In this document: positions 456 to 24,816 of the stretch, piece after piece
How positions within the stretch are numbered: the first letter of the stretch is position 1
How the letters are laid out: every line of letters starts with the position of its first letter
Source: Candidatus Aminicenantes bacterium
GTDB lineage: Bacteria; Acidobacteriota; Aminicenantia; JAMOAD01
Length of the DNA: 64,000 bases
Reading direction: 5' to 3'
NCBI GenBank assembly: GCA_027067555.1
Contig: JAMOVU010000177.1
Coordinates: 2,996-66,995, forward strand
The notes under the pieces: generated by a model
Told to the model about the DNA's origin: nothing
Databases searched by the model: none
What the model saw: only the letters and a program-made list of their open reading frames with translations
Program-made: the position numbers and the translations under genes

Positions 456-1305
456 AAAAATTAAAAAGGAAAGAATTAAAAAAAGAGGAGTCTCTATGAA
501 AAAAATTGCAATAACATCAGGAAAAGGCGGAGTGGGAAAAACAAATGTAGTGATTAATCTTGCTATAGCTCTTCAGAGAAGAAAGAAGAAAATTACTATT
601 TTTGATGCTGATCTGGGTCTTGCAAATATAGATATCCTTTTAGGATTAACTCCAAAATATAATATTGTTAACCTTATTTCCGATAATTTACCTATTGAGA
701 AAATTATGGTTGATGGTCCGGAAGGTATAAAAATTATCCCTGCTTCTTCCGGAATTCAAGAAATAACAAATCTTGATCCGTATCAGGAAGAGAGATTAGT
801 ACAAGAGCTTTCGAATATAGAAAAATTTACAGATATACTTTTGATTGATACTGCAGCAGGCATATCTGATCTTGTTTTAAGCTTTTTAATGAGTTCTGAA
901 GAAATTATTTTGGTTACCAATTCAGAGCCTACCTCTATTGTGGATGCTTATGCTGTTGTTAAAGTGGTGTCAAAGTATGATATGGAAAAGCCTATCTCAG
1001 TTGTAGTGAACAGTGTAAAAACACAGGAAGAAGGAGAAAAAGTTTATAACCAGCTCAAAAATGCTGTTGATAGGTTTATTGGAAGAGAGATAAATTTGCT
1101 GGGATTTCTTCCCTATGATAAAGCTGTCGTAGAAGCTGTGAAAATGCAGAGAGCTGTTACAGAGGCATTCCCTGAAAGTGAGATTAGCAGGGCCTTCTCT
1201 AATTTATCAAGAATTGTCCTCAATAAGCTTACATGGAGGAAAAGTGAGGAAAATAATGCTGAAACATGGAAAAAAATGTTAAATTTTAATGAAAGTGAAA
1301 AATAG
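433..1305 (+). CDS. flhG: MinD/ParA-family ATPase FlhG/FleN
   Basis: Deviant Walker A SGKGGVGKT, DADLGLAN, DTAAG; flhF-flhG-fliA synteny. Confidence 0.92.
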   Translation: MDQAETLRKIKKERIKKRGVSMKKIAITSGKGGVGKTNVVINLAIALQRRKKKITIFDADLGLANIDILLGLTPKYNIVNLISDNLPIEKIMVDGPEGIKIIPASSGIQEITNLDPYQEERLVQELSNIEKFTDILLIDTAAGISDLVLSFLMSSEEIILVTNSEPTSIVDAYAVVKVVSKYDMEKPISVVVNSVKTQEEGEKVYNQLKNAVDRFIGREINLLGFLPYDKAVVEAVKMQRAVTEAFPESEISRAFSNLSRIVLNKLTWRKSEENNAETWKKMLNFNESEK

Positions 1306-2026
1306 TAATTTTGAAGAGCTTATTATGAAAAACCTGCCTTTGGTTAAGAATATTGCCATTAAAATTCATGGCACTTTGCCTAAAAGCATTGAGCTTGATG
1401 ATTTAATAAATACGGGAATATTGGGCTTAATAGATGCAATAAAAAAATATGATAAGAATTTTGGCTTAAAATTTGAGAGCTATGCCTCAATAAGAATCCG
1501 GGGAGCTATTCTTGATGAGTTGAGAAAATTGGATTGGCTTCCAAGATCTGCAAGGGAGAGGAAAAAAGAAATTGAAAGGGCATATCTTGAACTTGAAAAA
1601 AAAGATGGTAAACCTCCTACAGAGGAGCAGGTTGCCGAATATTTGGGAATAGAAGTGGAGAAATTAAGGGAGCTTCTTTATAGATACAGGGGGAATAAAA
1701 TTGGTAGTTTTTATGCATCCGGCGAAAAAGGTGAAAGTGGTGAGGAGCTTATACTTTATTATCTTGAAGATGAAAGAGAAGATTCGCCCGAGGCCAAAGT
1801 TACATACAAGGAACTTAGAGAGTCTCTTAAAAAGGCAATCTCCAATCTGCCGGAAAGAGAGAAGTTGCTTATTTCTTTGTATTATTATGATGATTTGAAT
1901 CAAAAAGAGATAGGAGAGGTTATGAATATTACAGAATCAAGAGTGTCACAGTTAAGGACACAGGCTATAATGAGATTAAGAGCTAAAATAGATGAATTTT
2001 TTAAGATTAAGAAAGGAGGGAAATAA
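1289..2026 (+). CDS. fliA: RNA polymerase sigma-28 factor FliA/WhiG
   Basis: DDLINTGILGLIDA, RIRGAILDELRKLDWLPRS, region 4 EIGEVMNITESRVSQL. Confidence 0.95.
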   Translation: MKVKNSNFEELIMKNLPLVKNIAIKIHGTLPKSIELDDLINTGILGLIDAIKKYDKNFGLKFESYASIRIRGAILDELRKLDWLPRSARERKKEIERAYLELEKKDGKPPTEEQVAEYLGIEVEKLRELLYRYRGNKIGSFYASGEKGESGEELILYYLEDEREDSPEAKVTYKELRESLKKAISNLPEREKLLISLYYYDDLNQKEIGEVMNITESRVSQLRTQAIMRLRAKIDEFFKIKKGGK

Positions 2027-3036
2027 TGGCTAAAATCCTTTCCCAGGAAGAAGTTGACGCTCTTTTGAACTCCTTTTTAGAGGAAGAGAAAGGAGGGAAA
2101 GAGAGTGTTGCTACAATTACACCGAAGAAATCTCCGAAAAGAGAGGAGAAAAAAGGTACTATCTATAATTTCAGAAGACCGGATAGAATTTCTAAAGATC
2201 AGATAAGATCAATACACTATTTACATGATAGATTTGCAAGAAATTTTTCATCTTCTCTTTCTGCTTACCTTCGTGCTCTGGTTGAAGTTAACCTTGTATC
2301 TGTTGAACAGTTAACTTATGCTGAATTTGTCTTATCCTTACCTGACCCAACATTTTTTAATGCGGTTTCTATGAGTCCTCTTGAAATAGGGGCTATTATT
2401 GAAGTTAGTCCTTCAATTGTATTCCCCATTATTGATAAATTGCTTGGTGGGTCAGGAGCTCCACATGAGGGGCCTTCAAGAGCAATCACAGAAATAGAAG
2501 TTAAATTAATGACTGGCGTTTTAAATTTGATGCTCAGAGACCTTAAAGAGGCTTGGAAGCAGATTATTGAACTTGATATGAGGATAACGGCTCAGGAAAC
2601 CTCTCCACAATTGATACAGATTGTTGCTCCGAATGAAGTTGTTGTACTAATAGTTTTTGAGATAAAAATGGGAGCATCTTCCGGAATGGTTAACTTTTGT
2701 ATTCCATCAATTGTTTTGGAGCCTATAGCGCAGAAGTTTTCGCAGGATTGGTATACAGGCAGGAGAAAATACTCTGAAGAAGAAATTTATAGGATTAGAG
2801 ATATTCTAAAAGAGGCAATTTTTGAAGTTTTCGGAGAGATAAAAGGGAAACCACTGACTTTAGAAGAGATTATGAATTTGGAGAAGGGTGATATTTTAAT
2901 GATAGAGAAAAAAGATTTTTTAAACCCTTTGATAGTGATCTCTGGAAAACCCAAATTTGTAGGAGAGCTTTTTGTTCAAGATGAAAGAAAGGCTGTAAAA
3001 ATAAAATCTATTATTAAGAGGTTTAAAAATGAATGA
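2026..3036 (+). CDS. fliM: Flagellar motor switch protein FliM
   Basis: N-terminal CheY-binding LSQEEVDALL, YNFRRPDRISKDQIR, C-terminal SpoA-like domain. Confidence 0.95.
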   Translation: MAKILSQEEVDALLNSFLEEEKGGKESVATITPKKSPKREEKKGTIYNFRRPDRISKDQIRSIHYLHDRFARNFSSSLSAYLRALVEVNLVSVEQLTYAEFVLSLPDPTFFNAVSMSPLEIGAIIEVSPSIVFPIIDKLLGGSGAPHEGPSRAITEIEVKLMTGVLNLMLRDLKEAWKQIIELDMRITAQETSPQLIQIVAPNEVVVLIVFEIKMGASSGMVNFCIPSIVLEPIAQKFSQDWYTGRRKYSEEEIYRIRDILKEAIFEVFGEIKGKPLTLEEIMNLEKGDILMIEKKDFLNPLIVISGKPKFVGELFVQDERKAVKIKSIIKRFKNE

Positions 3037-3910
3037 AGTGGTTAACGAATTATTAAAAAAACTGGTTAAAGAATCAATAACCTCTGTATTATCCATGCTT
3101 TTGGGAAAAGAGGTTGATTGCAAGGTGGATGATTTTGAAGAAGCAACGAAGGATGTTATTTTAAACAGGTTTGCAGAACACAAAAGAGTTGTTGTCTCAA
3201 TGTTTGAGCATAAGGAAAGTGGGGGAGAACTATACTTTATTCTCTCGGAAAAATTTGGAGGACTTGTTTCCAATTATATTATGGGAGTTGAGGAGGAGAA
3301 AGAAAGCATCGGAGATGAGGATATTGATGCACTTTCAGAAGTGGGAAATCAAGTTGCGAGCAATTTGGGCATAAGCCTTAAAGGTGAGCTTGATAAGGAT
3401 TTTAACTTTTCTCAGGCAAAAACAAATGTTATTGAGTTAGGTGAACTCTATGAGAAAATAAAAACAGATGAGGTGGATTTTTCAAATGTTGAAGTAAAAA
3501 TAGGGGATAAGAGTAACAATCTTATAATTGCAATGACAAAGGACTTAAGTGCTTATTTGGAAGGAGGGCACACAGAGAAGTCTCCTGCGGAAGTAAGTGG
3601 GGGTAGAGAGATGGAACCTATTCGTCCTTCTGAGCCTATGGATATTAATTCAAAAATTGAAATGCTTTTGGATGTTGAACTTCCTGTTGTTATAAGAATC
3701 GGAAAAACAGAGATGTATTTAAAGAATATTCTAAAATTAGGAACAGGTTCAATAATCCAGCTTGACAAAGTGGTAGACGAACCGGTAGAATTATTTGTTA
3801 ATGACAAATTAATTGCAAGAGGAGAAGTTGTTGTGGTAGATTCAAATTTTGCTTTAAGAATTACTGAGATAGTTAGTAAAGAGGAGAGAATCCGATCATT
3901 GGGAAAATAG
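3029..3910 (+). CDS. fliN: Flagellar motor switch protein FliN/FliY (CheC-like domain plus C-terminal FliN domain)
   Basis: C-terminal LLDVELPVVIRIG...GEVVVVDSNFALRITEI; CheC-like DALSEVGN motif. Confidence 0.88.
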   Translation: MNEVVNELLKKLVKESITSVLSMLLGKEVDCKVDDFEEATKDVILNRFAEHKRVVVSMFEHKESGGELYFILSEKFGGLVSNYIMGVEEEKESIGDEDIDALSEVGNQVASNLGISLKGELDKDFNFSQAKTNVIELGELYEKIKTDEVDFSNVEVKIGDKSNNLIIAMTKDLSAYLEGGHTEKSPAEVSGGREMEPIRPSEPMDINSKIEMLLDVELPVVIRIGKTEMYLKNILKLGTGSIIQLDKVVDEPVELFVNDKLIARGEVVVVDSNFALRITEIVSKEERIRSLGK

Positions 3911-7549: not shown

Positions 7550-7971
7550 TTAATTATATACAAATTATTCTTGATGTTATTTTTATTATTTTAATAATTT
7601 TTCTTTTATATAGAACAAGATCATTATCAAAACTTCAAACATTAATAAAAAATTCAAAAAAAGATTTTGAATCTCTTTTGTTAGAGGGTAAGAAATGGGG
7701 GGATGAAATAATAAAAAAAATAGATATCAGAGAAAAAGAAGCGAGAGACCTTTTAATCAAACTGGAAAATGCTCATAAGAAACTTCTTGAAGAGGAAAAG
7801 AAGCTTATTATTGAAACTCCTGATATTGAAAAAACCAAAAGTGTTTTACTCCTTTACAATCAGGGCTTATCAAAAGAGGAGATTGCTAAAGGGTTAAATA
7901 TCCCGAAAGGAGAGATTGATTTAATTTTAGATTTAATTAACTTTATAAAGAAAAGTAATAAATTGTCGTAG
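7546..7971 (+). CDS. Flagellar-operon membrane-anchored coiled-coil protein with C-terminal HTH-like segment (DUF2802/DUF6115-like)
   Basis: N-terminal TM helix, coiled coil, LYNQGLSKEEIAKGLNIPKGEIDLIL; last gene of the operon. Confidence 0.65.
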   Translation: MINYIQIILDVIFIILIIFLLYRTRSLSKLQTLIKNSKKDFESLLLEGKKWGDEIIKKIDIREKEARDLLIKLENAHKKLLEEEKKLIIETPDIEKTKSVLLLYNQGLSKEEIAKGLNIPKGEIDLILDLINFIKKSNKLS

Positions 7972-7972
7972 T

Positions 7973-8560
7973 TTACTTTAAGAGCTTAATTATAAAAAAA
8001 CCACCTATAAGAAGAATAACAAAGGCTATTGATAGAATATTAAAGTATTTGTCTATAAATGATTTGATTTTAGCCCCATAAAAATAAAAAAGAGTGGAAA
8101 TTATAAAAAATCTTGCCGATCGGCTTAAAGCTGAGGCTATAAAAAAAATAAGAAAGTTTATCTTCCAGAACCCCGATGTAATTGTTATTAATTTGTACGG
8201 AATTGGAGTAAATCCTGCAATTCCAACGATCCATGCTGAATATGTATTGTAAAGCTCTCCCAGATGGGTGAATTTGTCTGTGAGATGGTAGAATTTTATA
8301 ATCGGTTTTCCTATTGTATCAAATAAAAAATAGCCAATTCCGTAACCGGCGATTCCACCCAAAATTGAGCCAATGGAGGTTATTACCGCGAATTTGAATG
8401 ATTTTTTTGGCTTTCCAACTTCCATTGCCATCATTAATACATCTGGCGGAATAGGAAAAAAGCTTGATTCAGCAAAAGCATTGAGAAAAAGTGCCCATTC
8501 GCTGTAGGGGGATTCTGCCCAGCTCAAGACTTTATCATACCATCTTTTTAAAAATCTCAT
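7973..8560 (-). CDS. YqaA/DedA (VTT domain) membrane protein
   Basis: AFAESSFFPIPPD, GFTPIPYK motifs; follows surE. Confidence 0.9.
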   Translation of the reverse strand: MRFLKRWYDKVLSWAESPYSEWALFLNAFAESSFFPIPPDVLMMAMEVGKPKKSFKFAVITSIGSILGGIAGYGIGYFLFDTIGKPIIKFYHLTDKFTHLGELYNTYSAWIVGIAGFTPIPYKLITITSGFWKINFLIFFIASALSRSARFFIISTLFYFYGAKIKSFIDKYFNILSIAFVILLIGGFFIIKLLK

Positions 8561-15444: not shown

Positions 15445-16326
15445 TTATCTGGGCTTTACTTTATTATATTCATCAATAAGCTGTTTTAAATTAAGATGTG
15501 TGTATCTTTGTGTTGTGTTAAGTGATGCATGTCCTAAAAGTTCCTGAATTGTTCTGAGATCTGCTCCCATTGAAAGCAGATGAGTTGCAAATGAGTGTCT
15601 TAATGAGTGAGGGGTAATGTCTTTAGTGAGGCCTTTTACCAAAAGATGCTTTTTAAGCATCATTTGAATATACCTTTGAGAGAGCCTTTTCCCGAATCTG
15701 TTTATAAAAACCGCCGAAGTTTTTGGTCTTTTCTCCTCTCTGTTTCTAAGATATTCTTTTACCTTTGCCTTTGCAATATCTCCGAAAGGTACTATTCTCT
15801 CTTTTTTCCCTTTCCCCTTTACTCTTATAAGCTGTTCTTTGAAGTTAATGTCTTCCAAATTTAAAGAAACAAGTTCTGAAATTCTAATCCCCGTAGCATA
15901 AAGGAGTTCCAAAATGGCATCATCCCTTATTTTAGTAAAATTATCTTTATCTTTCTCTTTTTCCTCCAAAAGTTCATTTACTTCGGTTATTGTCAGGAAT
16001 TTGGGAAGTGGTTTGTCAAGCTTGGGGAGAGGGACTGATTCAGCGGGATTTAATTTGATGATTCTTTCCTTTAAAAGATATTTAAAAAATGATCTTAGTG
16101 CTGAGATTTTTCTTGATATTGATGTCTTTTTTTCTCCCTTTTCAGATAAATACACAATAAATCCTCTGATATCAAGGGGAGAAATATCATCGATTTTTTT
16201 ATCTCCGAGATACTCTGAAAATTGGCTTAAATCCATTCCATAATTTTTTATAGTGTGCTCTGATGAGTTTTTCTCATATTTAAGATAACTTAAAAATTTT
16301 TTTATGTATTCTTTCATTAAAACCAT
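15445..16326 (-). CDS. xerC: Tyrosine recombinase XerC
   Basis: LLYATGIRISEL, TPHSLRHSFATHLL, LLGHASLNTTQRYTH; 293 aa in housekeeping context. Confidence 0.9.
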   Translation of the reverse strand: MVLMKEYIKKFLSYLKYEKNSSEHTIKNYGMDLSQFSEYLGDKKIDDISPLDIRGFIVYLSEKGEKKTSISRKISALRSFFKYLLKERIIKLNPAESVPLPKLDKPLPKFLTITEVNELLEEKEKDKDNFTKIRDDAILELLYATGIRISELVSLNLEDINFKEQLIRVKGKGKKERIVPFGDIAKAKVKEYLRNREEKRPKTSAVFINRFGKRLSQRYIQMMLKKHLLVKGLTKDITPHSLRHSFATHLLSMGADLRTIQELLGHASLNTTQRYTHLNLKQLIDEYNKVKPR

Positions 16327-16943
16327 TCTGTGACAAAAGACTTCAAATGTGAGGTATCATTCAGTTTGTAAAGCACATATCCTCTTTTTTTATCATAAAT
16401 TAGTGTTGACACTGAGGCATTATCAAGATGAAATTTCCAGAAAAAATCATTTTTAAGCCCCACTGCACAGGCAATGAGTGTTTTTAGAACTGATCTGTGT
16501 GAAATTAGAGAAATCTTTTCATATTTCATTGTTTTTATGAATTCAAAAAGATTGCAGACCCTTTTGTAAACATCTCTTATACTTTCTCCATTCGGGAATA
16601 CTATCTTTTCCGGAGTTTCTGTCCAGAGTTTCCACCTTTCAGGATTTTCCTTTTTTATCTTTTCCTTCTCAATTCCGCTCCAGCTCCCGAGATCAAGATT
16701 ATTAAGTCTTTCTTCAATTATAATTTCTTTTTCCGGAAAGATTATCTCTGCTGTTTCAACAGCTCTTATAAGAGGGCTTGAGAAAACAACTTCTATGTTT
16801 ATGGTGTTAAAATAATCTTTTGTGAATTTTGCCTGCTCTCTTCCTGTATCCGAAAGAGGGATATCAAGTCTTCCTCTGAATATTCCCTTTTTGTTTGATT
16901 CTGTCTCTCCATGCCTTATTAAATAAATCTCTTTTTTCCCCAT
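16317..16943 (-). CDS. Histidine phosphatase family protein (PhoE/CobC-like)
   Basis: LIRHGET, SSPLIRAVETA, FPNGES. Confidence 0.9.
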   Translation of the reverse strand: MGKKEIYLIRHGETESNKKGIFRGRLDIPLSDTGREQAKFTKDYFNTINIEVVFSSPLIRAVETAEIIFPEKEIIIEERLNNLDLGSWSGIEKEKIKKENPERWKLWTETPEKIVFPNGESIRDVYKRVCNLFEFIKTMKYEKISLISHRSVLKTLIACAVGLKNDFFWKFHLDNASVSTLIYDKKRGYVLYKLNDTSHLKSFVTEWF

Positions 16944-17039
16944 TTTCCTAAACCTTATCTTATATTATCATAAAACGAAGATAACTTTAATTTGACTTGA
17001 TTATTCAGAATCTTTACTATAGAATTTAAAATATCGGAG

Positions 17040-18311
17040 ATGGATTTGAAAAGTAAAAAAAGTTTAAGAAAAGAAATTGTAGAAAAGTATAAAAACCATG
17101 TGTCATCTTCAAAAGTAAAATTTTACAAAAAATACAGAATGAACTTTATAATGGGCAAAAGAGAGGGAAGCTTTATTTGGGATATTGATGGAGAAAAAAA
17201 GCTTTTAAACCTTCACTGCAATGGTGGGGTTTTTAATTTGGGTCATAGAAACAGAGAGCTTATTGAAATATTAAAAGAATCACTTGAATATTATGATATA
17301 GGGAACCACCATTTGATGAGTAGAGCAAGAGCTGAACTTGCCGAGTACATTGCTTATCTTATGCCGGAAGATCTTGACTATGTTATTTTCGGAGTTAGCG
17401 GAGGAGAGGCGATAGATACTGCTATAAAAATTGCAAGGGGTTATACTGGAAGAAAGAAAATAATCTCAGCTAAAGGTGGTTATCATGGTCATACAGGCCT
17501 TGCACTTGCCGCTGGCGATCCAAAGTATAGAGAGCCATTTTATTCATCATCATCTGATTTTGTCCAGATAGAATTTAATAATATAAAAGCCTTGGAAGAG
17601 AATATTGATAGAAGAACAGCAGCCGTTATTTTTGAAACAATTCCTGCGACACTTGGTATGCCAATAGCTGACAAAGATTATTTTAGAACAGTGAAAAGAA
17701 TTTGTGAGAGAAAGGGAGCGCTTTTAATTCTTGATGAAGTGCAATCAGGTCTCGGAAGAACCGGAAAACTCTGGGCTTTTCAGCATTTTAATGTTGTTCC
17801 TGATATTGTTGTTTTGGGGAAGGGGCTTTCAGGTGGACTTTATCCTATAACTGCTACTGTTATAAGAAGAGAGCTTGAAAGAGTATTTAAGAAGGATCCA
17901 TTTATTCATATCTCGACTTTCGGAGGAGCAGAACCGGGAGCTGTTGTTGCAAAAAGAGTGCTTGAAATAGTATCCGATGAGAATTTTTTAAAATCTGTTA
18001 ATAGAAAATCCGAGCTTTTTTCTCTTTATTTTAATGAATTAAAAAGGGTGGAGACAAAATTTGTAAAAGGATTAAGAAGATTGGGATTAATGATGGGGCT
18101 TGAACTTTACGATGAATATTCGGGTCCCGCTCTTACGAAATCCGCATATGATAAAGGTGTTCTCTTGGTCTATGCAAACAATGATAAATCAATAGCTCAA
18201 CTTTTACCTCCTCTTACAATTTCTGAGGATGAGATAAAGCTTGCATTTGAATTGTTAAAAAAAGCGGTTAAAAAAGCTAAGTATTTGAGATATCTTTTAA
18301 AAATCATTTAG
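17040..18311 (+). CDS. Class III PLP-dependent aminotransferase-family enzyme
   Basis: SGGEAID, YHGHT, LILDEVQSGLGRTG, DIVVLGKGLSGG (PLP lysine), STFGG. Confidence 0.93.
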   Translation: MDLKSKKSLRKEIVEKYKNHVSSSKVKFYKKYRMNFIMGKREGSFIWDIDGEKKLLNLHCNGGVFNLGHRNRELIEILKESLEYYDIGNHHLMSRARAELAEYIAYLMPEDLDYVIFGVSGGEAIDTAIKIARGYTGRKKIISAKGGYHGHTGLALAAGDPKYREPFYSSSSDFVQIEFNNIKALEENIDRRTAAVIFETIPATLGMPIADKDYFRTVKRICERKGALLILDEVQSGLGRTGKLWAFQHFNVVPDIVVLGKGLSGGLYPITATVIRRELERVFKKDPFIHISTFGGAEPGAVVAKRVLEIVSDENFLKSVNRKSELFSLYFNELKRVETKFVKGLRRLGLMMGLELYDEYSGPALTKSAYDKGVLLVYANNDKSIAQLLPPLTISEDEIKLAFELLKKAVKKAKYLRYLLKII

Positions 18312-18321
18312 AGGTGTTTTT

Positions 18322-19230
18322 ATGGAAAGGCTTGAAGTGTTGAGAGAATTTGAAAAAAATTTGGTCCCTCACAACCCTGAAAATTCAGGAATAAAACCTG
18401 AGATAATAGGCTATGGTGAAATATCCACAATATTTAAGATTCCGGAGTTAGAAGGTTTTGCATTTAAAAGATTACCACTTTTCAAAAGTACGGAAGAAGC
18501 TTCGAATTATGCCGAAAAATACAAAAAATATTGTGGTTTTTTAAAAGAAGCCGGAATAAAACTTCCGGATGATGAAACATTTATTGTTGATATCGGAAGA
18601 ATTCCCGTATCCCTTTATATTGCTCAAAAGGAGCTTCCTTCAAATTCAATAGGCAATAAGATTATTTCGGATATGAAAAAAGAAGCAATAAAGGAATTTT
18701 TCGAAAGAATAGTTTTTGAAACAAAAAAAGTATGGGATTTTAATAAGAAAAACAGAGAAAAGGTGGAACTTTCAATAGACGGTCAGCTTTCAAACTGGGC
18801 ATTGGTGGACAATGATATTTATTTTATTGATACAAGCACTCCACTTTTCAGATTAAATGGTGTTGAGCAGATGAATCCTGAACCCCTTTTGAAAAGTGCC
18901 CCCGGGTTTTTAAGATGGATTTTAAAACTCTTTTTTCTTGATGATGTGATGAACAGATATTATGATGAAAGATTGGTTTACATTGATTTTATTGCGAATC
19001 TTTACAAAGAGAAGATGGAAGAGCTTATTCCCATGACAATTGAGATAATAAATTCCAATTTATCGGAAAATATTGAAAAAATTAAAAGAGAAGATGTGGA
19101 TAAATACTATAAAGAGGATAAGATGATATGGACACTTTTTCTCTCTTTCAGACGATTCGACAGATTTTTGAAAACAAAAGTTTTTGGGAAAAGGTATGAA
19201 TTTATTCTTCCCGGAAAAATAGAGAGGTGA
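18322..19230 (+). CDS. Uncharacterized protein (recalled as DUF6206-like) with protein-kinase-like motifs
   Basis: GYGEIS Gly loop, AFKR, IDGQLSNW (DxxxxN), YFIDT. Confidence 0.65.
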   Translation: MERLEVLREFEKNLVPHNPENSGIKPEIIGYGEISTIFKIPELEGFAFKRLPLFKSTEEASNYAEKYKKYCGFLKEAGIKLPDDETFIVDIGRIPVSLYIAQKELPSNSIGNKIISDMKKEAIKEFFERIVFETKKVWDFNKKNREKVELSIDGQLSNWALVDNDIYFIDTSTPLFRLNGVEQMNPEPLLKSAPGFLRWILKLFFLDDVMNRYYDERLVYIDFIANLYKEKMEELIPMTIEIINSNLSENIEKIKREDVDKYYKEDKMIWTLFLSFRRFDRFLKTKVFGKRYEFILPGKIER

Positions 19231-19232
19231 AA

Positions 19233-20543
19233 ATGTGCGATACCTTTGTATTAAAAAAAGATGGAAAAATTTATTTTGGTAAAAATAGTGACAGGGAGCC
19301 CAACGAGGCTCAAATTATAGAATATCATCCACCCAAAGTGTATAAAAAAGGAGAAAAACTTAAAACCACATATCTTGAAATAGAGCAGGTTAAAGAGACT
19401 TACGGAATAATAATAGGCCGACCATTCTGGATGTGGGGAGCTGAAATGGGAGTGAATGAAAAAGGGGTTGTTATTGGGAATGAAGCTGTTTTTACGAAGC
19501 TTCCTTATTTAAAAAAGAATGTTTTAACAGGAATGGATATCTTAAGGCTTGCTCTTGAGAGAGGAGGTAATGCTGAAGAAGCAGTTGATGTGATTCTAAA
19601 ACTCCTTAATGATTATGGGCAGGGTGGAATATGCGGATTTGAAGATAAAAGAATGAGCTATCACAATAGTTTTTTAATAGCTGATAGAGAAAAAGCGTTT
19701 GTGCTTGAAACAGCAGGAGTGTTCTGGGTTTACAAAGAAATAAAGGATTTTTACGCAATATCAAACAGGCTGACCATTGAAGAGGAGTTTGATAAAATTC
19801 ATCCTGAAGCAATAGATTTTGCAATGAAAAAGAGATGGGTAAAAAAGGGAGAAAATTTTAGTTTTTCAAAGGCATTTTCGGATTTTATTTTTACAAAATT
19901 TTCTGGCTCATATTCGAGATGGTCGAGAGCCTTATCCCTTTTGAGAAAGAAGTATGATAATTTTAAACTTGAAGACACTTTTTCAATTTTAAGAGATCAT
20001 GGTGGAGAAGAGTATAATCCGGACTCTCATTTTTTAGCTGATTATATATGTGCTCACGGAGGAAATATAATAACTCGAAATGCAACTCAAACGGTAGGCT
20101 CTTTGGTTGTTGAAAATAGTGCAAATAATACAAAAGTTTGGTCGACTGCATCATCATCTCCCTGCACGGCTGTTTTTAATCCTGTCCCATTTGAAAATCT
20201 TCCGATTTTTGAAAAAAAACCAGATTCGTATTATGATGATAAAACCTACTGGTGGGTACATGAAAAACTTTATAGAGAAACTTTAAAGGATTTTTGGGAG
20301 CGAATGAATGTATACTCCAAAGAAATAAAGTTTTTTGAAAAGAGAGTAATTGGTGATATTGAAGATGATAAAAAACTCAATGACCTGGACTTTTATAATG
20401 ATAATTTTGTCAGGGCAAAGAAAAAATATCTTGAGTGGTATGATTGGATAAAGGATAGGAAGATTAGAAAAAGACCCAACTTTGTTTTCAGGGTATTCTG
20501 GAATGGGCAAAATAGAAAAGCAGGGCTTAATATTAGACTTTAA
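19233..20543 (+). CDS. Peptidase C69/secernin-like Ntn hydrolase
   Basis: M-C-D-T N-terminus (Cys nucleophile), FGKNSDREPNEAQ, WMWGAEMGVNEKGVVIGNEAV, GMDILRLALER; SD GAGGTG before ATG 19233. Confidence 0.9.
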   Translation: MCDTFVLKKDGKIYFGKNSDREPNEAQIIEYHPPKVYKKGEKLKTTYLEIEQVKETYGIIIGRPFWMWGAEMGVNEKGVVIGNEAVFTKLPYLKKNVLTGMDILRLALERGGNAEEAVDVILKLLNDYGQGGICGFEDKRMSYHNSFLIADREKAFVLETAGVFWVYKEIKDFYAISNRLTIEEEFDKIHPEAIDFAMKKRWVKKGENFSFSKAFSDFIFTKFSGSYSRWSRALSLLRKKYDNFKLEDTFSILRDHGGEEYNPDSHFLADYICAHGGNIITRNATQTVGSLVVENSANNTKVWSTASSSPCTAVFNPVPFENLPIFEKKPDSYYDDKTYWWVHEKLYRETLKDFWERMNVYSKEIKFFEKRVIGDIEDDKKLNDLDFYNDNFVRAKKKYLEWYDWIKDRKIRKRPNFVFRVFWNGQNRKAGLNIRL

Positions 20544-20599: not shown

Positions 20600-21340
20600 T
20601 TGAGTATGGGAGTTTTTAGTATTTTTAAGAAAAGCATTTCATTGTCAAAAAATGATATAGTAAAAACAGAAGACATAGCAGAACATCTTAGTCGTTTGTT
20701 AAAGAATGGAACAAATTTATATTTTAAGAGTGGGAATTATGGGAGAAGTGTTCCTCTTGTTCTAAAGAAGATAGGAGAGATGAGAGAAAGGATAGCTTTT
20801 AAAGCAGTCTCTGTTTTCCCTGAAAAAGAGGGGGCAAAGATTACCGTTGAATATGAAACGATGGGGAATCGCTATAAATTTGAAACAAAGGTAATCTCTT
20901 ATAAAGAGGATACAGGAATTGTAATATCAACATTTCCGTCTGTTATTAGGGATAATGAGAGAAGAAGGGAGAAAAGAGTTAAAATACCAAACAGAGCAAG
21001 GTTCATGGTCAAAGTTATTTCAGGAATGGGAGGAGGAATAGGTTTTTCAGGTGATATTATTGATTTAACTTTATTAGGCCTGAGTATGTATGTTGAAAGA
21101 GTTATTGATATAAGAAGTGAAAAAGAAATGCAGGTAAAAGATAAATTGTTTACCCCAGGGATGGAGCTCAGTGTAATAAGGTTTAAAGCAGAAGGCTCAA
21201 GAGAGGCTGAAGTTTCAGGAAAACTAATTTATGCAATAAAGGATGGAGCTAAAATAAGAGTTGGAATTGAGTTTAAGAAACCCTCTGATAATAGCTTGAA
21301 TATTATTAAATCAATGCTTATGAAGTTTTCAGGAAGATGA
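20600..21340 (+). CDS. PilZ-domain c-di-GMP receptor (YcgR-like flagellar brake architecture)
   Basis: RREKR (RxxxR) and DLTLLG (DxS/TxxG) motifs after an N-terminal YcgR-like beta domain. Confidence 0.75.
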   Translation: MSMGVFSIFKKSISLSKNDIVKTEDIAEHLSRLLKNGTNLYFKSGNYGRSVPLVLKKIGEMRERIAFKAVSVFPEKEGAKITVEYETMGNRYKFETKVISYKEDTGIVISTFPSVIRDNERRREKRVKIPNRARFMVKVISGMGGGIGFSGDIIDLTLLGLSMYVERVIDIRSEKEMQVKDKLFTPGMELSVIRFKAEGSREAEVSGKLIYAIKDGAKIRVGIEFKKPSDNSLNIIKSMLMKFSGR

Positions 21341-22789: not shown

Positions 22790-23798
22790 AGCTTTATTAT
22801 ATTTTTTATTTGTTTTTATTATTGTTGGGATAATTACACTTTACCTTTACTTTGATAAGGCTGTTAATACAAAGTTTAAAGCATTCTCGGGTGAGAAGAT
22901 TATTGTGATAGATAGAGGCTCTTCTGTTTCAAGAGTAGCTAATATTTTAGAAAGGGAAGGTATTATTAAAAATTCGGATATATTTAAACTTGCTTACAAA
23001 TTCTACTTTAGAGGTAAAGTGATAAATGCTGGAGAGTTTAAGTTTGATAAGCCTCTTTCAATAAAGGAGGTACTTCAGAAATTGATTTCAGAATATGGTA
23101 TTTTGATAAGTTTTACAATAAAAGAAGGTGATTCTATTTTTGATATTGGGGAAAATCTTGAAAAGAGAGCTATTTTTAAAAAAGATGATTTTCTTAAATT
23201 CGTAAAAGAAAATACATACTTTATTGCTGATTTAGCCCCCAATGCAAAGAGTTTGGAGGGGTTTCTATTTCCAGATACTTACAAGTTTTCAAAGGGAATT
23301 GATATTAGAAAACTTGTTAGTATATTTGTAGAGAACTTCAGAACAAAGTTTTTCCCTGTCTGGAATAAACGGCCATCCGATTATAAATTTTCTATCTATG
23401 AAACAATCACTCTTGCTTCTTTAATAGAAAAAGAAACCTCAACAGGGTCTGAGCGTAGTTTGATAAGTTCTGTTTTTCATAATCGTTTAAAAAAAGGAAT
23501 GCTTCTTCAGTGTGATCCCACTTTTATATATGCTTTAAAAGTGGATGGTAAATGGAAAGGGAAGATTGGGTACAGAGAAATTAAATATGATTCTCCTTAC
23601 AATACCTATCTTTACAGGGGGCTTCCACCCGGTCCCATTGCAAATCCCGGGATTAGTTCAATTAAAGCTGCAATATACCCTGCAAATACCAAATATTTAT
23701 ATTTTGTCTCAAAAAATGATGGAACCCACTATTTTAGTAAAACCTTGAAAGAGCACAACAGGGCTGTATATAATTATCAAATAAGGAAGGTCAGATGA
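22776..23798 (+). CDS. mltG: Endolytic transglycosylase MltG
   Basis: LEGFLFPDTY, LASLIEKET, LQCDPT, SPYNTY, GLPPGPIANPG. Confidence 0.95.
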   Translation: MKVIKALLYFLFVFIIVGIITLYLYFDKAVNTKFKAFSGEKIIVIDRGSSVSRVANILEREGIIKNSDIFKLAYKFYFRGKVINAGEFKFDKPLSIKEVLQKLISEYGILISFTIKEGDSIFDIGENLEKRAIFKKDDFLKFVKENTYFIADLAPNAKSLEGFLFPDTYKFSKGIDIRKLVSIFVENFRTKFFPVWNKRPSDYKFSIYETITLASLIEKETSTGSERSLISSVFHNRLKKGMLLQCDPTFIYALKVDGKWKGKIGYREIKYDSPYNTYLYRGLPPGPIANPGISSIKAAIYPANTKYLYFVSKNDGTHYFSKTLKEHNRAVYNYQIRKVR

Positions 23799-24816
23799 AG
23801 AAGAGATTAGTTTATATAGATTATTACCGTATGATAATAATCCTCTTAATGATGCAGGGGCATACTTTAAGAGCTCTTTTAAGGAGAGATCTGAAAACAG
23901 GTATTTGGTTTAAAATTCACGAGTATATTCACGGGGCTGTAGCGCCTGGATTTCTTTTTCTTTCTGGTTTTCTATTTTTTTATACTCTAAAAAAAAAGAT
24001 AAAAATAAGCTAATTTCAAGAATAATTCAGTATATAGGTATTATTTCAATAGGCTATTTCCTTCATCTGCCGTTTTTTTCTTTTGAAAAGATTGCTATGT
24101 TATGGGATAAGGGAGCAGGTGAGAAATTGCTTCAAATGGATATATTGCAAACAATAGGGTACTCACTACTCTTTTCAGCTATTTTATGGCTTTTTAATAA
24201 AAAAGCCTTTTTCCCTGTTCTTACTGCAATTGGTGTTTTAGACATTATTCATATTTTTTATAAAATTGATATTTCCAATGTTTTCTTTAAATTTTTTTTC
24301 AAACCTGAACTCTCTCCGTTTCCCTTTTTCCCTTGGTCTCTTTACTTTATTGTGGGAGTATTATCCTCCAAATATTTGAAAAAGAAAAGTGATTTGCTTT
24401 TAATTTTTTCTGTTGTTCTTTGCAGTATTCAAATTTTTATTTCAGGTGTTCATGCTGAGAGAATTGCTGATATCGGAAAGATTCTTTTTTTATTTGAGAT
24501 GTGTAAAAGATTCTGTACAACGGTTCCTCCCAAAATGAGGGCTTTTATGAGAGCTTCTCGGGAAAGCCTTTTCCTTTATGTATCTCACATTATGATAGTT
24601 TATGGCTCTGTTCTTTCAAGAGGGTTATCATTTTACATAGGGGAAAATCTAAGTTTTTCAGAGTTTTTAGTGGTGTTTATTACAATGAGTGTAATGCTTT
24701 ATTTTATTGCTTATTATATAAATATGATTCGCGAAGAGAATTTTTCTCTTTTCCTTCTTATCAAAAATAGCCTTTATCTTATCTTTTTGTTGAATTTTTT
24801 TAAAAGACCTTGGTAA
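23795..24816 (+). pseudogene. Membrane acyltransferase (DUF1624/HGSNAT-like), split by a frameshift in an A9 run (ORF pieces 23795-24013 and 24097-24816)
   Basis: RLVYIDYYRMIIILLMMQGH and VAPGFLFLSG in the first frame; adding one A at 23989-23997 gives a continuous ~340-aa ORF through IGYFLHLP and MDILQTIG. Confidence 0.75.

Follow-up and report, generated by a model that had tools for sequence, protein, structure and literature searches.

A conserved three-gene module links an atypical class III pyridoxal phosphate enzyme to a predicted protein-kinase-like DUF6206 protein and a predicted secernin-like hydrolase

RESULTS

Layout of the locus

We analyzed a 64,000-nucleotide stretch of a Candidatus Aminicenantes bacterium genome (contig JAMOVU010000177.1; the whole stretch is called the window here) and report on three adjacent genes within it, which encode an atypical class III-fold pyridoxal 5′-phosphate (PLP) enzyme (AT), a DUF6206 protein with a predicted protein-kinase-like (PKL) fold, and a predicted secernin/C69-like hydrolase of the N-terminal cysteine nucleophile (Cys-Ntn) type. 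The source genome, in which the contig is C177, is 2.8 Mb long and 97.7% complete, and its closest relatives are Aminicenantes metagenome-assembled genomes. An initial annotation of this DNA had described three linked genes behind a promoter, and the three same-strand open reading frames (ORFs) are indeed present, with coupled junctions (Table 1). The AT gene ends with a TAG stop codon (18309 to 18311) that is followed by AGGTG and then by the ATG of the DUF6206 gene. The TGA stop codon of the DUF6206 gene (19228 to 19230) lies within GAGAGGTGA, and the ATG of the hydrolase gene comes two bases on. The three genes are translationally coupled.

The third ORF can be read from GTG 19227 or from ATG 19233. 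We took ATG 19233 as the start because public databases call the gene there, with a product of 436 amino acids that begins M-C-D-T (P0121, 100% identity). Since the protein starts with Met-Cys, Cys2 would become the N-terminal nucleophile once the Met is removed. The M-C-D-T nucleophile proposed in the initial annotation therefore stands for ATG 19233, and GTG 19227 is not the start.

The proposed TTGATT-17-TAGAAT promoter is present as a sequence but does not rise above chance, with 28 promoter-like matches observed in the AT-rich DNA of the region versus 18.7 ± 4.3 in shuffles. Because such matches are common in AT-rich DNA, the promoter is plausible but by itself not significant. Rfam searches of the window and 10 related loci found no riboswitch or other RNA that would name a ligand, and the leader upstream of ATG 17040 is too short for a riboswitch. 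We also sought RNA-seq evidence of cotranscription, and the runs that contain the sequence, a hydrothermal-vent metagenome run among them, are DNA only.

TABLE 1 Features of the three-gene locus in the window
Feature	Coordinates	Strand	Evidence
Atypical class III-fold PLP enzyme (423 aa; AT)	17040-18311	+	PF00202, 276.6 bits; PatA-like N-terminal helix; PLP lysine K261
DUF6206 protein (302 aa), cryptic protein-kinase-like fold, presumed small-molecule kinase	18322-19230	+	PF19709, 89.3 bits; AlphaFold2 and Foldseek
Secernin/C69-like Cys-Ntn amide hydrolase (436 aa), predicted	19233-20543	+	PF03577, 28.8 bits; PF03417, 30.3 bits; Foldseek
Sigma-70-like promoter candidate TTGATT-17-TAGAAT	16997-17025	+	9/12 matches; followed by GGAG and ATG 17040

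Co-occurrence and distribution of the three genes

The survey drew on 113 loci taken from GTDB genomes, public assemblies, and metagenomes; they represent 66 lineages at 75% DUF6206 identity. The initial annotation had treated the three genes as parts of one pathway, and we found that the trio recurs widely elsewhere. The PLP gene adjoins the DUF6206 gene in about 66 of the 68 loci with enough upstream sequence; a script gave 57 of 68, and inspection reassigned 9 of the 11 apparent exceptions, which reflected ORF overlaps, one inserted FRG gene, or a DUF6206-AT-C69 gene order. The hydrolase gene lies directly downstream of DUF6206 in 49 of 70 loci. A full-length secernin-like orthologue was present in 15 of 17 module genomes, including all three Asgard genomes and both Chloroflexi genomes, where it is unlinked. 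Among 302 sampled genomes, the 3 with DUF6206 all carried the hydrolase, which was found in 2 of the 299 others (Fisher p = 2e−6). We consider it highly probable that the three genes are one functional unit.

The module is sparsely distributed. DUF6206 was found in 1 of 151 sampled genomes of the window's phylum (0 of 11 of its class) and in 2 of 151 Flavobacteriales genomes. The DUF6206 tree places the Asgard sequences, the Chloroflexi sequences, and one Thermodesulfobacteriota sequence in one well-supported clade and divides Thermodesulfobacteriota over three clades. The module is clearly a rare accessory unit that has moved horizontally between phyla and into Asgard archaea. No fourth conserved gene (transporter, regulator, or dehydrogenase) accompanies it, with no family found in more than 5 of the 66 lineages; the most recurrent other neighbors are HD-GYP genes (5 lineages) and FadD-like ligase genes (2 lineages). 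Nothing recurrent was seen beside the hydrolase genes that are unlinked in Asgard and Chloroflexi or beside the hydrolase gene of a genome that lacks DUF6206.

Three observations concern single loci. Unlinked secernin-like genes in one Chloroflexota and one Promethearchaeota genome (G012:C1:517682-518983 and G010:C11:130417-131670) contain in-frame stops (one TAA in one; one TAG and two TAA in the other) and may be decaying copies or assembly errors. In a closed Fidelibacterota genome (CP070787; L005), the DUF6206 and hydrolase genes are intact, and all that remains of the PLP gene in front of them is a 130-residue C-terminal remnant (7587 to 7981). A TRAP transporter occupies the place of the 5′ part of the PLP gene, and the genome has a second, more distant secernin-like copy. 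A locus titled "uncultured Clostridia bacterium" (CAZWJH010000003.1; L006) is syntenic with the window and 88 to 92% identical over the histidine-phosphatase, AT, DUF6206, C69, and PilZ genes; it groups inside the Aminicenantes clade, and the Clostridia label is probably wrong.

The middle protein has a predicted kinase fold

The only Pfam match of the middle protein is PF19709 (DUF6206), which spans residues 44 to 280 and scores far above the gathering cutoff of 30.4 bits. The initial annotation had read four kinase-like motifs, in the right order, from this protein, and all four are there: GYGEIS (residues 30 to 35), AFKR (47 to 50), DGQLSN (153 to 158), and YFIDTSTP (167 to 174), which provide the Gly-rich loop, the beta3 Lys, the catalytic D-x4-N, and the metal-binding Asp in PKL order. 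All of the 44 homologues examined, which come from many phyla, have G30, G32, K49, D153, N158, and D170, and the forms conserved across bacteria and Asgard archaea are G30-x-G32, K49-R50, D153-x-Q-x-S-N158, and D170-T-x-T-P.

We built an AlphaFold2 model of the DUF6206 protein on these 44 homologues (pLDDT, 88.4; pTM, 0.87) and compared it with the PDB using Foldseek. There were 153 matches with E ≤ 1e−3, and all 50 matches listed were kinases or pseudokinases with probabilities of 0.99 to 1.00, which upholds the kinase fold that had been suggested for this protein. Among the matches listed, WaaP ranked first, followed by eukaryotic-type protein kinases and pseudokinases, and APH(2″) was present. 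The model is without an activation-loop segment and has a long helical C-lobe, as in small-molecule kinases.

Sequence searches identified no relatives outside the family. No other Pfam family matched any of the 44 DUF6206 members, even at E ≤ 10, and models of the known PKL small-molecule kinases (APH, choline/ethanolamine kinase, fructosamine kinase, and Kdo/WaaP) gave no DUF6206 match. No NCBIfam model matched the DUF6206 protein, a phmmer search of PDB sequences returned nothing relevant, and a full-text literature search found no paper naming DUF6206. The family is small: a profile search across 1.84 billion representative proteins gave 808 clusters at 50% identity (571 at E ≤ 1e−10). A long form of roughly 400 to 527 amino acids (P0387-P0470) accounts for about 20 of the 150 best representatives; its N-terminal extension of 110 to 210 residues is helical and has no Pfam domain. 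Based on the model and the conserved residues, DUF6206 is a cryptic and apparently catalytically intact PKL enzyme, and it is probably an active kinase.

The PLP enzyme has lost the carboxylate-binding residues of transaminases

The first protein matches the class III aminotransferase family (PF00202), and its best sequence matches are Thermus LysJ/ArgD (1vef; 210 bits) and Escherichia coli PatA (4uox; 208 bits). It scores under every NCBIfam equivalog cutoff (PatA NF008570, 255.8 versus 612; ArgD TIGR00707, 281 versus 410). The enzymes of this genome, KSB1, and Flavobacteriaceae share 59 to 60% identity, and identity falls to 43% with the Asgard copy and to 31% with PatA.

We mapped the residues of the PLP enzyme by alignment with annotated E. 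coli K-12 PatA, ArgD, and GabT. The PLP lysine K261 (GabT K268), the Asp of D232-E-V-Q, the PatA-like N-terminal helix, and the GxFNxGHRN loop are retained. In GabT and ornithine aminotransferase (OAT), the alpha-carboxylate of 2-oxoglutarate or glutamate is held by R398, for which E211 acts as the gate, and the substrate carboxylate is held by R141. In the PLP enzyme, the position of GabT R141 (PatA K183, ArgD R144) is H151, that of E211 (in EPxQGEGG) is T204, inside an invariant E-T-[IV]-P-A-T-x-G, and that of R398 (PatA R426, ArgD R377) is Q387. Because all three GabT residues are replaced, the PLP enzyme is very unlikely to act as a plain ornithine, putrescine, or gamma-aminobutyric acid (GABA) transaminase, the outcome that the initial annotation had set against its own proposal. 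More broadly, the alignment suggests that it is likely not a canonical 2-oxoglutarate transaminase.

These replacements are conserved features of the family. Q387 is Gln in 120 of 120 close database homologues, and the corresponding residue in 20 locus orthologues is Gln in 16, Lys in 3 (the Asgard copies), and Ile in 1. Among the 20 locus orthologues, H151 is kept in 17 and replaced by Val in 3, H90 is invariant, and H91 occurs in 19; of the 120 database homologues, at least 118 have H151. The family motifs E199-T-[IV]-P-A-T-x-G206, Y148-H-G-H151-T-G, D86-I-G-N-H90-H91, and Q387 are conserved in both sets. Human ETNPPL (6tor) ranks beneath more than 50 transaminase sequences in a search with the PLP enzyme, and by these sequence matches the enzyme falls outside the known phospho-lyase (AGXT2L) clade. 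Lyases documented within the class III fold are limited to ethanolamine-phosphate phospho-lyase, a close relative of it, and PbfA (PMC8154272). We found no AT-DUF6206 fusion proteins among the best 120 AT homologues. We also considered whether the AT is the sole or housekeeping ArgD of the genome; this was ruled out by three further class III enzymes in the genome, whose scores are higher or similar.

The third protein is a predicted Cys-Ntn hydrolase

The Pfam matches of the third protein to PF03577 (Peptidase_C69; cutoff, 23 bits) and PF03417 (AAT) are weak yet above the cutoff. Its structural model (pLDDT, 88.4) carries a helical C-terminal extension of roughly 100 residues, and its best Foldseek match is the Lactobacillus C69 cysteine dipeptidase 5iau (E = 2.5e−16; TM-score, 0.67); next in rank are bile-salt hydrolases, penicillin V acylases, and isopenicillin-N acyltransferase (AAT). 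By sequence, the family profile matches 5iau, the sole solved C69 enzyme, at E = 0.08, which is very distant. C2 is kept in at least 90% of 32 homologues, and N18, S19, and R21 are present in all 32. The names given by JGI to close homologues are secernin or dipeptidase. These results predict that the third protein is a secernin/C69-like Cys-Ntn hydrolase. The substrates of the C69 secernins were still unknown in a 2022 review (PMC9140057), which places secernins, acid ceramidase, and NAAA in one PVA subgroup of Cys-Ntn hydrolases, in which NAAA and acid ceramidase cleave fatty amides.

The same genome encodes another C69 peptidase, with a signal peptide (507-amino-acid ORF), beside an OAT-like class III aminotransferase (contig C126, 25713 to 28493, minus strand). 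We considered this pair as a related module; it is without DUF6206, has an ordinary secreted dipeptidase, lies next to ribH/nusB, and appears unrelated.

Neighboring genes

The genes beside the module vary among lineages. In one lineage (L116), an unrelated Amidohydro_3 amidohydrolase lies directly after DUF6206 in the place of the Cys-Ntn hydrolase, a replacement that fits an amide-hydrolysis step, and the next gene encodes a short-chain dehydrogenase/reductase (SDR) resembling 3-ketodihydrosphingosine (KDS) reductase. A long-chain fatty-acid-CoA-ligase-like (FadD-like) gene is directly downstream in three loci (L111, L124, and L125). A lipase-like Hydrolase_4 gene lies upstream in L025, and L128 has a GMC oxidoreductase gene upstream and a permuted gene order. 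In L115, genes for a PhnS2/PotD-type solute-binding protein and a permease are directly downstream. Because each of these associations is limited to one or two lineages, we treat them only as hints of an amide-hydrolysis step and, possibly, of a lipid-derived substrate.

In two Chloroflexota loci (L017, 4670 to 8290, and L029, 2353 to 8215), the AT-DUF6206 pair lies between the genes for S-adenosylhomocysteine (SAH) hydrolase and S-adenosylmethionine (SAM) synthetase (MetK), followed by phosphoglucomutase/phosphomannomutase (PGM/PMM) and phosphoglucose isomerase (PGI) genes. This context may reflect insertion into a housekeeping cluster or may hint, for that lineage only, at a SAM-related substrate. 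In the Asgard loci, AT-DUF6206 follows two HGSNAT-like membrane acyltransferase genes and a DUF362 gene, with a UbiA prenyltransferase gene also beside it; the two HGSNAT-like genes in L022 and L023 (about 930 to 3310) are intact and immediately upstream. Downstream of the module in the window, a broken acyltransferase gene of the HGSNAT/Acyl_transf_3 family (72 and 239 amino acids) lies at 23795 to 24816 on the plus strand, and its correspondence with the Asgard pair may be a link or chance.

Directly after the module in the window is a PilZ-domain gene (20600 to 21340, plus strand; weak PF07238/DUF1577 match) with its own promoter-like site. This gene is kept in the Aminicenantes relatives L006, L008, and L009, and a gene for an HD-GYP/PAS protein follows the module in five other lineages. 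The cyclic di-GMP (c-di-GMP) theme could be a coincidence. On the other side of the module, a divergent histidine-phosphatase gene (16317 to 16943, minus strand) has as its best NCBIfam matches PspA (phosphoserine phosphatase) and CobC (alpha-ribazole phosphatase), both under the cutoff. It is syntenic in the closest relative, L006, only and is probably not part of the module. A role for the locus in anti-phage defense was discarded, with no PADLOC match.

DISCUSSION

Proposed pathway

We describe a real, conserved, previously undescribed three-gene module, and it fits the known logic of a kinase and a class III phospho-lyase with an amidase in front. Literature searches for the gene trio returned nothing relevant. 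ETNPPL-type phospho-lyases act downstream of PKL amino-alcohol kinases (ethanolamine kinase and hydroxylysine kinase). We propose, tentatively, that the module is a cytoplasmic small-molecule pathway for a hydroxyl-bearing amine, most simply an amino alcohol held in an amide; the full scheme is possible, and its steps are predictions. In the first step, the secernin-like Cys-Ntn hydrolase would cleave an amide, for example, an N-acyl amino alcohol, to release a free primary amine. DUF6206, judging from its fold and intact catalytic residues, would then O-phosphorylate the amino alcohol with ATP. The PLP enzyme would bind the resulting phospho-amine and carry out a 1,2-elimination that yields an aldehyde or ketone, NH4+, and inorganic phosphate, and its conserved His-rich pocket could hold the phosphate. 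The PLP enzyme and the kinase would form the core, with the amidase as an accessory feeder step.

We favor this order because the trio mirrors the route from NAAA through ethanolamine kinase to ETNPPL, and because the keto-acid machinery is gone from the PLP enzyme, which has a His-rich pocket. The likeness to this mammalian route makes N-acylethanolamine/ethanolamine the leading candidate substrate, with sphingoid bases or ceramide, aminopropanol, and hydroxylysine as alternatives. A more specific version of the scheme seems unlikely. It would combine the kinase, a PatA-derived phospho-lyase that arose independently of animal ETNPPL, and a secernin-type amidase for lipid or small amides to degrade N-acyl amino alcohols (N-acylethanolamines and ceramide-like lipids) without oxygen, B12, or an amino acceptor.

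The succession of amide hydrolysis, O-phosphorylation, and a PLP-dependent step that the initial annotation had put forward survives as the best-fitting logic, and of the three outcomes that it had named as refuting (no kinase fold, no co-occurrence elsewhere, a plain transaminase), none came about. The proposal is supported in part: the PLP enzyme lies outside the known phospho-lyase clade, and the hydrolase is absent from 2 of the 17 module genomes (one KSB1 and one closed Desulfobacterales). Some lineages can dispense with the hydrolase.

Several further points weigh against this scheme. The TM-scores of the DUF6206 model to solved kinases are low (0.30 to 0.44), and a Pfam scan of the 44 members showed no sequence similarity of DUF6206 to the amino-alcohol kinases of the APH/ChoK families. 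Human ETNPPL matches the PLP enzyme with 123 bits versus 208 to 210 bits for PatA and LysJ/ArgD; because ETNPPL is no closer than the transaminases, lyase chemistry in the PLP enzyme would be convergent. The missing carboxylate residues would suit an aminomutase, a racemase, or a transaminase with nonacid partners as well. Across the 66 lineages, the module has no transporter, regulator, or aldehyde dehydrogenase as a steady companion, so the neighbors indicate no substrate, and the lipid-flavored neighbors are confined to one or two lineages each. We know of no member of the module families that has a known enzyme activity.

Alternative explanations

The closest characterized relatives of the PLP enzyme, PatA and ArgD/LysJ, and its PatA-type N-terminal helix with GxFNxGHRN would also suit a true transaminase with a diamine, polyamine, or amino-alcohol donor and a nonacid aldehyde or ketone as the acceptor. 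The kinase would then trap the product or pull the equilibrium by phosphorylating the substrate or product, and the amidase would deacylate N-acyl or gamma-glutamyl polyamines. JGI names the orthologues putrescine aminotransferase, the PotD/PhnS-type binding protein and permease lie directly downstream in L115, and oxidoreductases capable of acting on aldehydes (aldo-keto reductase, SDR, and GMC) stand beside the pair in single lineages. However, the Arg that holds the keto acid (GabT R398, PatA R426, ArgD R377) is Gln in all 120 close homologues, the Glu gate and the R141/Lys position are changed as well, and no known transaminase pathway requires a protein-kinase-like kinase. We regard this explanation as unlikely.

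In its patchy, horizontal distribution across marine and sediment lineages, the module is like osmolyte and lipid head-group genes, and a biosynthetic role would follow if the PLP enzyme aminated a carbonyl and the kinase phosphorylated the product, giving a phospho-amine head group, an osmolyte, or a piece of a cofactor, with the Ntn protein as an amidotransferase or a maturation or trimming hydrolase. The Asgard loci beside the HGSNAT-like acyltransferases and the UbiA prenyltransferase and the Chloroflexi loci between SAH hydrolase and SAM synthetase are consistent with such a role. The neighbors nevertheless differ in every lineage, and transamination in reverse would still need an amino-acid donor, for which the binding Arg is missing. 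We consider biosynthesis quite doubtful. The supply of aminopropanol phosphate for cobalamin, with the AT and kinase acting beside a CbiZ-like hydrolase and a CobC-like neighbor, was rejected, given that 11 of the 17 module genomes, the 97.7%-complete genome of the window among them, lack CbiB.

It is improbable that DUF6206 is instead a protein kinase, pseudokinase, or nucleotidyl transferase that regulates or modifies the PLP enzyme, with the hydrolase as an ordinary dipeptidase feeding amino acids. In favor of this reading, most of its Foldseek matches fall among eukaryotic-type protein kinases and pseudokinases, the solved structure nearest to the hydrolase is that of a C69 dipeptidase with broad specificity, and the module is often followed by c-di-GMP genes (PilZ in the window and HD-GYP in five lineages). 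Against it, the missing activation-loop segment and the long helical C-lobe are typical of small-molecule kinases, and the intact catalytic residues argue against a pseudokinase. The strict 1:1 adjacency and the overlapping or near-overlapping genes are typical of consecutive enzymes.

Implications

This work gives the DUF6206 family a predicted fold, a catalytic residue set, and two fixed partners. If the scheme of amide hydrolysis, phosphorylation, and phospho-lysis is true, the module would be a compact, cofactor-light route by which anaerobes obtain nitrogen and phosphate-free carbon from amino alcohols; the anaerobes concerned include Asgard archaea and the main locus groups, which were sampled from marine and subsurface sediment. 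In addition, it would represent an independent second origin of phospho-lyase chemistry within the class III aminotransferase fold. Furthermore, the operon would be the first biochemical handle on secernin function: animal secernins are homologous to the third protein and have no known substrate (PMC9140057), and the operon therefore offers concrete candidate substrates.

Comparison with known systems

Each of the three proteins resembles a known enzyme from which it also departs. The best structural match of DUF6206 is WaaP, the lipopolysaccharide core heptose kinase (PDB 6dfl), with which it shares the bilobal fold, the Gly loop, the Lys, the DxxxxN, and the metal-binding Asp, but the TM-scores between WaaP and the DUF6206 model are only 0.34 to 0.41, and hhalign of the DUF6206 profile against E. 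coli WaaP gave no match (probability, 0.4%). The PLP enzyme has PatA (YgjG; 4uox) and Thermus LysJ/ArgD (1vef) as its best sequence matches and shares with them the N-terminal helical extension, GxFNxGHRN, the PLP Lys, and DEVQTGxGRTG. It differs from them in that EPIQGEGG becomes ET[IV]PATxG, PatA K183 (ArgD R144) becomes His, and PatA R426 (ArgD R377) becomes Gln, and it scores far beneath their NCBIfam equivalog cutoffs. The third protein has the predicted Cys-Ntn fold, N-terminal Cys nucleophile, and GKNSDR-type motif of the C69 dipeptidase 5iau and the animal secernins SCRN2/3; it differs from them in its genomic tie to a kinase and a PLP enzyme, its C-terminal extension, and its sequence distance from 5iau.

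As a system, the module is most like ethanolamine kinase with ETNPPL (AGXT2L1) or HYKK with PHYKPL, with NAAA upstream. None of the three proteins is orthologous to its counterpart there, the kinase is without an APH or choline-kinase match, and the hydrolase is C69/secernin-like and not C89. Nevertheless, the module and the known route have the same three folds in the same logical order, and the PLP enzyme is without the canonical transaminase carboxylate residues. In the module, this enzyme strictly adjoins a protein with a predicted PKL fold.

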